Below, piece by piece: positions 9,384-10,283 of a DNA stretch of 17,902 nt. The translations under genes were made by a program, and so were the position numbers. This DNA comes from a virus (lineage: Duplodnaviria > Heunggongvirae > Uroviricota > Caudoviricetes). The notes under the pieces were generated by a model. That model was not told the DNA's origin. It saw only the letters and a list, made by a program, of their open reading frames with translations, and made no database searches. Location: the IMG/VR virus record IMGVR_UViG_2778261135_000007. One strand, 5' to 3'. The number at the start of each line of letters is the position of its first letter. Position 1 is the first letter of the stretch.

Positions 9384-9953
9384 ATGACTGAATTAACCAA
9401 AGAGCAATTAATCGAAGAAACCAAATTAAAAATAGCGATTGCGAAATGCCATCCCAATTCAGGGGTAGCACGAGTAGAGGGTAAGTTATTCAAAATTGCA
9501 CTGACATCGCTGGAAGCCGAGCCTGTAAGCCAAACTTACAACTTGCCAGAATTAATCGAAGGCATGGAGGTTTCCATTGATGTAAGCACTTGTGATGCTG
9601 ATTTAGGTAATCGCTATTTCGGCACCGTCACCGAGGCGCTAGAACTTGATACAGCCAAGAATGGTTACATCCTCCTGGTTCAGGACGCAGAGCCAAACTT
9701 CGATGTAAATGGCAACTCTCCGGGAACTCCGGATAGTTGGATAAGCTGTAGTGATCGAATGCCTGAAAAGGGCCAGAACGTGCTTATTTCGGTGAATTTC
9801 GATAGCTCTCTGGTTGAACCGCTAATATGCTCCGCACGCTATACCGGAAGCACCTTTCGGCGCGGAGATGCAACGATTAAGCCGGGTAATGGTATTGAGC
9901 AAGCAACTCACTGGATGCCGCTACCAGAACCGCCGCAGGAGGTGAATCAATGA
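9384..9953 (+). CDS. Phage protein with C-terminal DUF551-like domain
   Basis: 189-aa ORF. C-terminal region WISCSDRMPEKGQNVLISV...EQATHWMPLPEPPQE resembles the DUF551 signature (W-I-x-x-x-D-R-x-P ... T-H-W-M-P-L-P-E-P-P) as I recall it. Confidence 0.7.
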   Translation: MTELTKEQLIEETKLKIAIAKCHPNSGVARVEGKLFKIALTSLEAEPVSQTYNLPELIEGMEVSIDVSTCDADLGNRYFGTVTEALELDTAKNGYILLVQDAEPNFDVNGNSPGTPDSWISCSDRMPEKGQNVLISVNFDSSLVEPLICSARYTGSTFRRGDATIKPGNGIEQATHWMPLPEPPQEVNQ

Positions 9954-10102
9954 GCTGGCCTGAAGTGTTCACAACGGTAGGGATTGCAATGGCGGTGGCG
10001 CTGGTGGTGTATTCTATTTGCCGCTGGGGTAAGGTATTAAAAAACGCCCCGCACACAGACGTTGAGCGCCTGAGATGTGGGGATAGGGAGTTAGTTAAAT
10101 AG
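9950..10102 (+). CDS. Small membrane protein (50 aa, one predicted TM helix)
   Basis: ATG overlaps the stop of the upstream gene (ATGA). Translation MSWPEVFTTVGIAMAVALVVYSICRWGKVLKNAPHTDVERLRCGDRELVK. Below the ORF-track length cutoff. Confidence 0.4.
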   Translation: MSWPEVFTTVGIAMAVALVVYSICRWGKVLKNAPHTDVERLRCGDRELVK

Positions 10103-10193
10103 TTATACAACAATACCTGATTTTATATTGAAGCAAGAAATAGGTTGCTACATATTGAATCATGCGCGTGTACGTCAAATATGGGAGGTCATC

Positions 10194-10283
10194 GTGCTGG
10201 TTCTGAAATGTGCGCTGGCTATTGCGGCAGTAATGGCAATTTATTGTCTTGTTATCGTTCTTATGAATCACCTCTCTGATTGA
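10194..10283 (+). CDS. Candidate small hydrophobic peptide (29 aa), possible membrane toxin-like peptide
   Basis: GTG start 5 nt after a GGGAGG Shine-Dalgarno. Translation VLVLKCALAIAAVMAIYCLVIVLMNHLSD is almost entirely hydrophobic. Located about 150 bp upstream of the hok locus. Not in the ORF track. Confidence 0.3.
   Translation: MLVLKCALAIAAVMAIYCLVIVLMNHLSD

Follow-up and report, generated by a model that had tools for sequence, protein, structure and literature searches.

The stretch of DNA analysed here (the window: 17,902 nt of IMG/VR record IMGVR_UViG_2778261135_000007, with coordinates counted from its first letter) carries two small open reading frames (ORFs) for hydrophobic peptides, here called ORF-A and ORF-B, which lie between a DUF551 gene and a hok/sok locus. 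Both had been picked out in an original prediction made from the window's letters, and sequence comparison now confirms them as bona fide small coding genes, conserved in frame, length and ribosome binding site and held under purifying selection. Their layout is as it was predicted, in that ORF-A runs from the ATG at 9950 to a stop ending at 10102 (50 amino acids) and shares an ATGA overlap with the DUF551 TGA (9950-9953), and that ORF-B follows GGGAGG and 5 nt of spacing with GTG at 10194 and TGA at 10281-10283, giving the 29 amino acids VLVLKCALAIAAVMAIYCLVIVLMNHLSD. The features of the two ORFs are as follows.

9937 to 9942, plus strand: Shine-Dalgarno sequence AGGAGG of ORF-A, 7 nt before the ATG and within the last DUF551 codons.
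9950 to 10030, plus strand: conserved 27-codon core of ORF-A, MSWPEVFTTVGIAMAVALVVYSICRWG, a predicted single-pass membrane micro-protein.
10026 to 10029, plus strand: homopolymer of four G (G4; relatives have G5, TGG GGG TAA), where one G fewer means that the stop is lost.
10031 to 10102, plus strand: 23-codon read-through tail of ORF-A with its stop, unconserved and non-coding in relatives by the G4/G5 comparison.
10118 to 10130, plus strand: the first of two copies of a 13-nt direct repeat, TGATTTTATATTG, closing with the TTG of the putative ORF-B -35 hexamer.
10128 to 10156, plus strand: putative sigma-70 promoter of ORF-B, P_B (TTGAAG, 17 nt, CATATT), matching the consensus at 8/12 positions, just under the scan threshold.
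10183 to 10188, plus strand: Shine-Dalgarno sequence GGGAGG of ORF-B, 5 nt before the GTG.
10194 to 10283, plus strand: ORF-B, 29 codons and stop, very hydrophobic and predicted to be single-pass, on the grounds of conservation and Hessa dG.
10281 to 10293, plus strand: second copy of TGATTTTATATTG, beginning at the ORF-B TGA and ending in the TTG of the hok -35 hexamer.

Although the 50-residue frame of ORF-A is indeed present in the window, it does not represent the gene, since by comparison with its relatives the conserved gene is 27 amino acids long and the 50-residue version is a frameshift-extended allele. IMG/VR holds 562 relatives of ORF-A, of which the best 80 are all exactly 27 amino acids long, and the family is defined by the 27-residue motif M[TS]WPEAF..VG.A.A....VY.ICRWG. 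It is only these first 27 residues that are shared, and past ..CRWG the relatives either stop or carry unrelated C-terminal tails, which differ in every context. In 13 distinct contexts having the arrangement of the window the coding sequence ends with G5 followed by TAA, and G4 is found in the window alone, so that a G missing at 10026-10029 lets the frame pass its normal stop and adds 23 unconserved residues. A one-off sequencing error was also considered as the source of the 50-residue allele and ruled out, the exact 50-residue sequence being present on 108 contigs.

The claim that ORF-A is translationally coupled to the gene before it was upheld. The ATGA alone is uninformative in this respect, because codon 2 of ORF-A begins with A, and the test therefore required an upstream ORF of at least 80 codons ending in that very TGA, a situation found in 85 of 95 distinct ORF-A contexts. 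Across these 95 contexts the upstream genes have C-termini of at least four unrelated kinds, and despite this GGAGG is always found 8-10 nt upstream of the ORF-A start. By this comparison ORF-A is a terminal, coupled micro-cistron of early-region genes and not a component of hok, since hok follows in only 31-42 of 80 loci, and at other loci there is an intrinsic terminator directly 3' of ORF-A.

A diverged lineage, A2 (MIWPEAFAITGVAIAIDFLVYVICRWG), has 67% nucleotide identity to ORF-A, and the differences between the two are those expected of a gene under constraint: 16 of 28 fall at codon position 3, dN/dS is 0.15, and in simulated substitution the probability of keeping the amino-acid identity together with an open frame is 0.002, the other five frames giving worse scores or stops. 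Members of the family are encoded in 90 deposited phage genomes, among them 933W, VT2-Sakai, Min27 and BP-4795, and in the three records that were inspected (933W, Stx2 converting phage I and ArgO145) ORF-A has no gene annotation of its own. In 933W and Shiga toxin 2 (Stx2) phages the unannotated 27-residue ORF-A, MTWPEAFANVGTVMAVVLVVYSICRWR, shares bases with the L0139 stop codon and directly adjoins the promoter of hokW (locus L003, 1634-1717, 933W). It should also be mentioned that the ORF-A helix contains a variable Ala-Met repeat (GIAMAMAMAVAL...), which adds 2-6 residues in frame in some strains (relatives P0052-P0057), and that ORF-A is cut short by a TGA at codon 3 in one IMG/VR locus, L068.

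ORF-B is likewise preceded by conserved signals. Its Shine-Dalgarno sequence looks functional, as had been supposed, in that GGAGG is kept in all ORF-B contexts while the neighbouring bases vary, and in every lineage of either family GGAGG is found 5-10 nt before the start with unrelated flanks. Three unrelated upstream contexts of ORF-B have in common TTGAA[GT]-17-CATATT, a GTGTACGTC block and GGAGG, separated by spacers that vary, and P_B, from which transcription would start near 10163, recurs identically placed in 50 of 59 distinct ORF-B contexts. The nearest upstream gene annotated in phage mEp460 lies on the other strand, which means that ORF-B would there need a promoter of its own. A scan of the window found no terminator between ORF-B and hok, and transcripts of ORF-B should therefore run on into the hok leader; both the activity of P_B and this read-through are what we infer from the arrangement. 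The two exact copies of TGATTTTATATTG are 163 nt apart, which suggests either a promoter duplication or a recombination joint. On the opposite strand a 58-residue ORF (10095-10271, minus strand), present as a coding sequence (CDS) in phage HannyBb, was considered and rejected since its frame has a stop in the ORF-B homologue B2, and the HannyBb CDS is probably a mis-call; this antisense ORF shares codon boundaries with ORF-B.

The ORF-B family has the motif ..AIYCL..VLMDRLSD, a length of 29-34 amino acids and three diverged lineages, B, B2 and B3. Full-length ORF-B has 29 codons in all loci in which it was found, both those anchored on hok (40/40) and those anchored on the protein (85/85), and it starts either with GTG or with ATG one codon upstream. 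B2 is a 34-residue homologue, MSDDISLAMEGALAVIAVVGVYCLVVFLMDRLGN, whose 34 codons are intact in 25 of 25 loci with mostly synonymous variation, and the third lineage, B3 (30 amino acids, P0136), which came to light in a profile search of 1.84 billion proteins, is found 155 nt upstream of a HOK_GEF gene and behind an ORF6N gene. Pairwise dN/dS among the three is 0.23-0.28, with P = 0.006 for B against B2, and only the sense (plus) frame is open across all of them. The coding case rests on this comparison between lineages because variation within ORF-B itself is too sparse. Together with the fixed lengths (80/80 for ORF-A), these results answer the question of whether the reading frames are conserved in homologous prophages in the affirmative.

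The family is confined to Escherichia and Shigella, apart from three contigs of metagenome-assembled genomes bearing other names (one genome per species being considered). The protein search was made with a TTG-extended frame of 51 amino acids, since 29 residues fall below the 40-residue minimum, and a profile hidden Markov model of the family gave 26 matches among 1.84 billion representative proteins, all of them to the same family, so that no remote known relatives were found in that search.

The position of ORF-B relative to hok is best appreciated from the neighbouring features.

9384 to 9953, plus strand: DUF551 gene, from the ORF list (Pfam PF04448, E = 9e-22), with its TGA at 9951-9953.
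10291 to 10319, plus strand: hok promoter from the promoter scan (TTGGCG, 17 nt, TAGAAT), present in 49/59 contexts.
10326 to 10500, plus strand: hok mRNA leader and Sok target region (Rfam RF01794, the sok model, 115.3 bits, E = 4.5e-26), the leader starting at about 10326 according to Rfam.
10438 to 10650, plus strand: mok, from the ORF list, enclosing hok (10495-10650).

The hok -35 hexamer (10291-10296) thus begins 8 nt past the ORF-B stop, and many genomes match the window by megablast only from about 10168 on, just ahead of the ORF-B Shine-Dalgarno sequence. A 31-nt hok promoter pattern retrieved 120 IMG/VR loci, of which 118 have at least 450 nt upstream, and in these the element directly 5' of the hok promoter is distributed as follows.

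ORF-B: 36/118 loci.
B2: 25/118 loci.
ORF-A itself: 23/118 loci.
Stubs of B: 17/118 loci.
Stubs of B2: 7/118 loci.
No A or B element: 10/118 loci.

An ORF of the A or B family, or a remnant of one, is accordingly found immediately 5' of hok in 108 of the 118 loci with this type of promoter. Seen from ORF-B, hok follows in 75 of the 78 loci with enough downstream DNA. B2 and B3 loci also run into hok though their upstream genes differ, and since the order of the B2 locus is DUF551, A2, B2, hok, the gene order of the window recurs in a second, diverged lineage. The association is nevertheless asymmetric, as hok is found in 96% of ORF-B loci and a full B-family ORF in about half of such hok loci, and neither ORF-B nor hok strictly requires the other.

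The stubs at the hok promoter place the left edge of the hok module inside the B genes. In 17 loci only the last 7 ORF-B codons (ATGGATCACCTTTCTGATTGA) are kept on the hok promoter, preceded by AAGGAG and forming a mini-ORF of 6 codons, MDHLSD, and 7 loci keep just the final B2 codons. Between the B2 stop and the hok promoter there is a perfect 22-bp palindrome, CGATATGGGAATTCCCATATCG (locus L291, Sakai Sp6, about 1775-1800, and many IMG/VR loci), which is retained where B2 is truncated; it is not terminator-like, since no T-run follows it on either strand, and could be a protein-binding or processing site. The loci L128 (2498-2587, a Shigella flexneri chromosome), L198 and L209 have an intact ORF-B together with the promoter-like region upstream of it, but no hok. 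In L128 the neighbours are a transporter-like ORF and a 120-residue ORF, and what is left there seems to be the remains of a prophage whose ORF-B has survived.

The notion that the two ORFs are unannotated holds for ORF-B, under which there is nothing in 25 of 25 RefSeq genomes annotated with the Prokaryotic Genome Annotation Pipeline (PGAP), but not for its homologue in E. coli Sakai nor for some GenBank entries, which label both peptides 'hypothetical', 'membrane protein' or 'bacteriophage protein'. ORF-B has a 100% match in E. coli SMS-3-5. In the Sakai RefSeq record ECs_5710 is exactly the 34-residue B2, described as a hypothetical protein and located in prophage Sp6 between the DUF551 gene ECs_1518 and mokC, and A2 has no annotation in the current version of that record. 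Furthermore, B2 with a longer assumed start (54 amino acids) is XECs145, one of 465 novel translated ORFs of Sakai (Hücker et al. 2017, PMC5597208). In lysogeny broth (LB) this ORF has an RNA value of 79 reads per kilobase per million (RPKM), a ribosome profiling (RIBOseq) RPKM of 346, a ribosome coverage value (RCV) of 4.35 and a coverage of 0.99 (S2 Table of PMC5597208), in brain heart infusion (BHI) the RIBOseq RPKM is 150 and the RCV 1.14, and it was classed as 'real' and as a predicted inner-membrane protein; the text of that paper comments neither on hok nor on a family for XECs145. Ribosome occupancy, proposed as a check on the original prediction, is thereby supported by published profiling for the B2 homologue of ORF-B. 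What was already known is thus that B2 is in a Ribo-seq catalogue and annotated as hypothetical, and for the family relationships, the coupling rule of ORF-A, the extended allele and the synteny of B and hok no description was found in the searchable literature, a full-text search with the peptide strings likewise returning no papers.

As for the adjoining locus, the Hok product of the window resembles sequences of the HokD/HokW type, and related loci carry the labels HokD, MokW or MokC. Takada et al. 2021 (PMC8621323) found that after mitomycin C the hokW-sokW pair of prophage Sp5 furthers growth arrest and lysis as well as the release of phage, and that Sok vanishes on prophage induction by a trigger left unexplained there; the ORFs upstream of hokW go unmentioned in that paper. 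An Rfam scan of the ORF-B region found no family besides sok, which lies further downstream. By its sequence the window is a Qin/Rac-like lambdoid prophage, as marked by a DicF sRNA (4775-4826, minus strand, 72.5 bits) and by two cspA-type thermoregulator leaders with csp genes (13795-14187, 159 bits, and 16697-17082, 109 bits).

Both ORFs can be regarded as genuine genes for small hydrophobic peptides, as was claimed, having one transmembrane segment each, conserved intact frames and dN/dS of 0.15-0.28. ORF-B has a grand average of hydropathy (GRAVY) of 1.95 and its best transmembrane segment a summed Hessa dG of -3.6 kcal/mol, and the 27-residue core of ORF-A has one predicted transmembrane segment, so we infer that both peptides insert into the membrane. 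In scans of Pfam, NCBIfam and PHROGs, A, the A core, B and B2 had no hit that rose above the noise below threshold, phrog_35838 (E = 0.0055) and phrog_4612 (E = 0.015), both of unknown function, coming closest. No match of A, B or B2 to Hok/Gef (PF01848) was found by hmmscan against Pfam at E <= 10, and PHROGs and NCBIfam gave no match of A, B or B2 to any toxin family; the hits of ORF-A and ORF-B to kdpF, SecE and ATP synthase subunit c were likewise noise below threshold.

Among known systems the closest to ORF-B is XECs145/ECs_5710 of Sakai Sp6, with 58% amino-acid identity over the shared 24 residues, the motif ..YCL..LMDRL.. and the same slot between a DUF551/ORF-A pair and mok/hok. It differs in being 34 residues long with an acidic N-terminal extension, MSDDISLAME, in having no promoter of its own but lying 36 nt after ORF-A2, and in the 22-bp palindrome before the hok promoter. 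The Hok/Gef toxins (PF01848) resemble ORF-A and ORF-B in being small, in having one N-terminal transmembrane helix and in belonging to the same prophage segment. ORF-B, however, is without sequence similarity to them, without an overlapping mok-like frame, a conserved antisense RNA, a long structured leader or a C-terminal periplasmic domain, and its homologue B2 is freely translated in growing cells. TisB, ZorO, DinQ, ShoB, Ibs and Ldr are peptides of 18-35 amino acids that form one hydrophobic helix and that annotation usually misses. They have dedicated antisense or divergent sRNAs and inert primary transcripts, neither of which is conserved for ORF-B. MgtS, AcrZ, KdpF, PmrR and CydX resemble ORF-A and ORF-B, with at most 50 amino acids, one transmembrane helix and a strong Shine-Dalgarno sequence, often in the last or a translationally coupled cistron of an operon, and are non-toxic when expressed; ORF-A and ORF-B differ from them in being prophage-borne and show no homology. 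Such small inner-membrane proteins of E. coli were reportedly found by Hemm et al. in 2008 through conservation and models of ribosome binding sites.

The proposal that the 29-residue peptide is a type I toxin does not agree well with these results and seems to us quite improbable. Its size and hydrophobicity fit the toxin class, it resembles toxins of the TisB, ZorO, DinQ and Ibs type in these respects and in its charged C-terminus, and it is a stand-alone gene with a putative promoter of its own beside a type I locus, but size and composition do not separate toxins from benign micro-proteins. A cis-antisense RNA about 240 nt long, covering ORF-B, would repress the toxin; it would be transcribed from 10312..10283, starting near 10276, and end at a hairpin at 10063..10043, and a search of the opposite strand, as had been suggested, indeed found candidates for both signals.

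10283 to 10312, minus strand: promoter-like site from the scan, TTAACT, 18 nt, TAAAAT, a 9/12 match, divergent from the hok promoter.
10043 to 10063, minus strand: terminator-like hairpin with T-run from the scan, a possible antisense 3' end.

These two sites bracket ORF-B and its promoter, but neither is well conserved, the promoter-like site being present in just 24 of 59 ORF-B contexts and in none of the B2 contexts, and the hairpin only in contexts of the window type, varying even among L004, L026 and L043 on inspection by eye. No conserved cognate antisense RNA could thus be found for ORF-B among the 59 ORF-B contexts and the B2 contexts. Nor is there any sign of silenced translation in normal growth, since the leader is only about 30 nt, the fold of leader and ORF, including weak pairing of the Shine-Dalgarno sequence, gains no stability over shuffled sequences (z = -0.24), and B2 is heavily translated without harm in exponentially growing Sakai (RCV 4.35, 99% coverage in LB). 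Translation of B2 in growing lysogens is the opposite of the translational silencing which defines type I toxins, and it should also be mentioned that B2 and B3 sit within operons, 36-50 nt after the preceding gene, and that no toxin family is matched.

What we consider probable is instead that ORF-A and ORF-B are two genuine micro-protein genes of lambdoid prophages, likely encoding non-toxic inner-membrane peptides of one helix, and that ORF-B is the 5' member of a B-hok/sok cassette, which by the genomes compared is specific to the lambdoid prophages of Escherichia and Shigella. Ribosomes ending the preceding early gene would restart on ORF-A by way of the ATGA overlap and the GGAGG inside the upstream gene, and the resulting peptide would begin with the acidic stretch M[TS]WPEAF, continue as a helix and finish with the basic ..VY.ICRWG. 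ORF-B would in the lineage of the window be expressed from its own weak sigma-70 promoter, with transcripts extending into the hok leader. Both peptides would be inserted in the inner membrane as one-helix micro-proteins and be produced in amounts that are not toxic, ORF-A along with the early genes of the phage and ORF-B in the lysogen as well. ORF-B may act in the membrane alongside Hok, the lysis aid in Sp5 on induction, without being a toxin itself. Our best guess is accordingly a role as accessory inner-membrane peptides, with ORF-B tied to the prophage hok cassette.

Several observations weigh against parts of this reading. P_B has only the 8/12 match to consensus and is disrupted in about 15% of contexts, and B2 and B3 are without it, the gene before them ending 36-50 nt away. 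If only the ORF-B lineage is considered, its variable sites are distributed as 11/5/5 over codon positions 3/1/2, a weak codon bias. The Ribo-seq data (PMC5597208) cover B2, the 30-residue cut-off having left out both the 27-residue ORF-A and the 29-residue ORF-B, and the B2 reads could partly multi-map among the many lambdoid prophages of Sakai or stem from spontaneously induced cells. That ORF-B works with Hok is suggested by synteny alone, and here it counts that a stub of B or B2 is all that is present in 24 of 118 hok loci, making ORF-B dispensable for hok, that 3 loci have an intact ORF-B without hok, that ORF-A is followed by hok in only the 31-42 of 80 loci given above, and that no homology upstream of the promoter is seen in the hok loci of plasmids and of K-12.

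A bolder version, in which the prophage hok is a larger membrane module with micro-peptides (B always and A often) as partners of Hok, tuning its insertion, its oligomerisation or the timing of lysis or shielding the lysogen from leaky Hok, and in which transcription coming in through ORF-A and ORF-B silences the convergent sok promoter on induction, appears unlikely. It may likewise be asked whether the peptides matter at all, or whether the ORFs are kept as DNA or RNA of hok regulation, for example as promoter-upstream sequence or through translation in cis controlling read-through and interference with sok. Such a role would account for the 8 nt between the ORF-B stop and the hok -35 hexamer, for the retention of the last 2-7 codons at the hok promoter in loci that lost most of B or B2, for the 13-nt repeat common to P_B and the hok promoter and for the missing terminator between ORF-B and hok, and the loss of Sok on induction (PMC8621323) could be explained by transcription from upstream. 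However, change is concentrated at synonymous sites, and AIYCL, LMDRLSD, WPEAF and ICRWG survive 33-37% nucleotide divergence, which argues for selection on the peptide; furthermore ORF-A and ORF-B both occur intact without hok, and other hok loci work without them, so that we hold a purely regulatory role to be very improbable. Least credible of all are chance open frames without function, or decaying remnants. Very short ORFs with Shine-Dalgarno-like motifs do arise randomly, ORF-A of the window has a frameshift-type change, that of L068 a premature stop, and neither ORF is called by PGAP, but hundreds of intact copies of fixed length, dN/dS of 0.15-0.28 between lineages, conserved Shine-Dalgarno sequences and the Ribo-seq signal of B2 speak against such an origin, which the conservation data already contradict.

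Small membrane proteins are systematically missed by annotation, and the number of E. coli and Shigella prophages with these two peptides runs into the hundreds to thousands, the medically important Stx phages 933W and VT2-Sakai being among them, with no curated family covering either peptide. The 27-residue family is a clean case of a coupled terminal micro-cistron moving among unrelated upstream genes with its own Shine-Dalgarno sequence. Even without a link to Hok there would thus be two small-protein families for annotation, together with a warning on the frameshift-extended allele, and the near-obligate position of ORF-B at the hok promoter in three lineages provides a testable lead on how hok/sok may be wired into prophage induction (PMC8621323).

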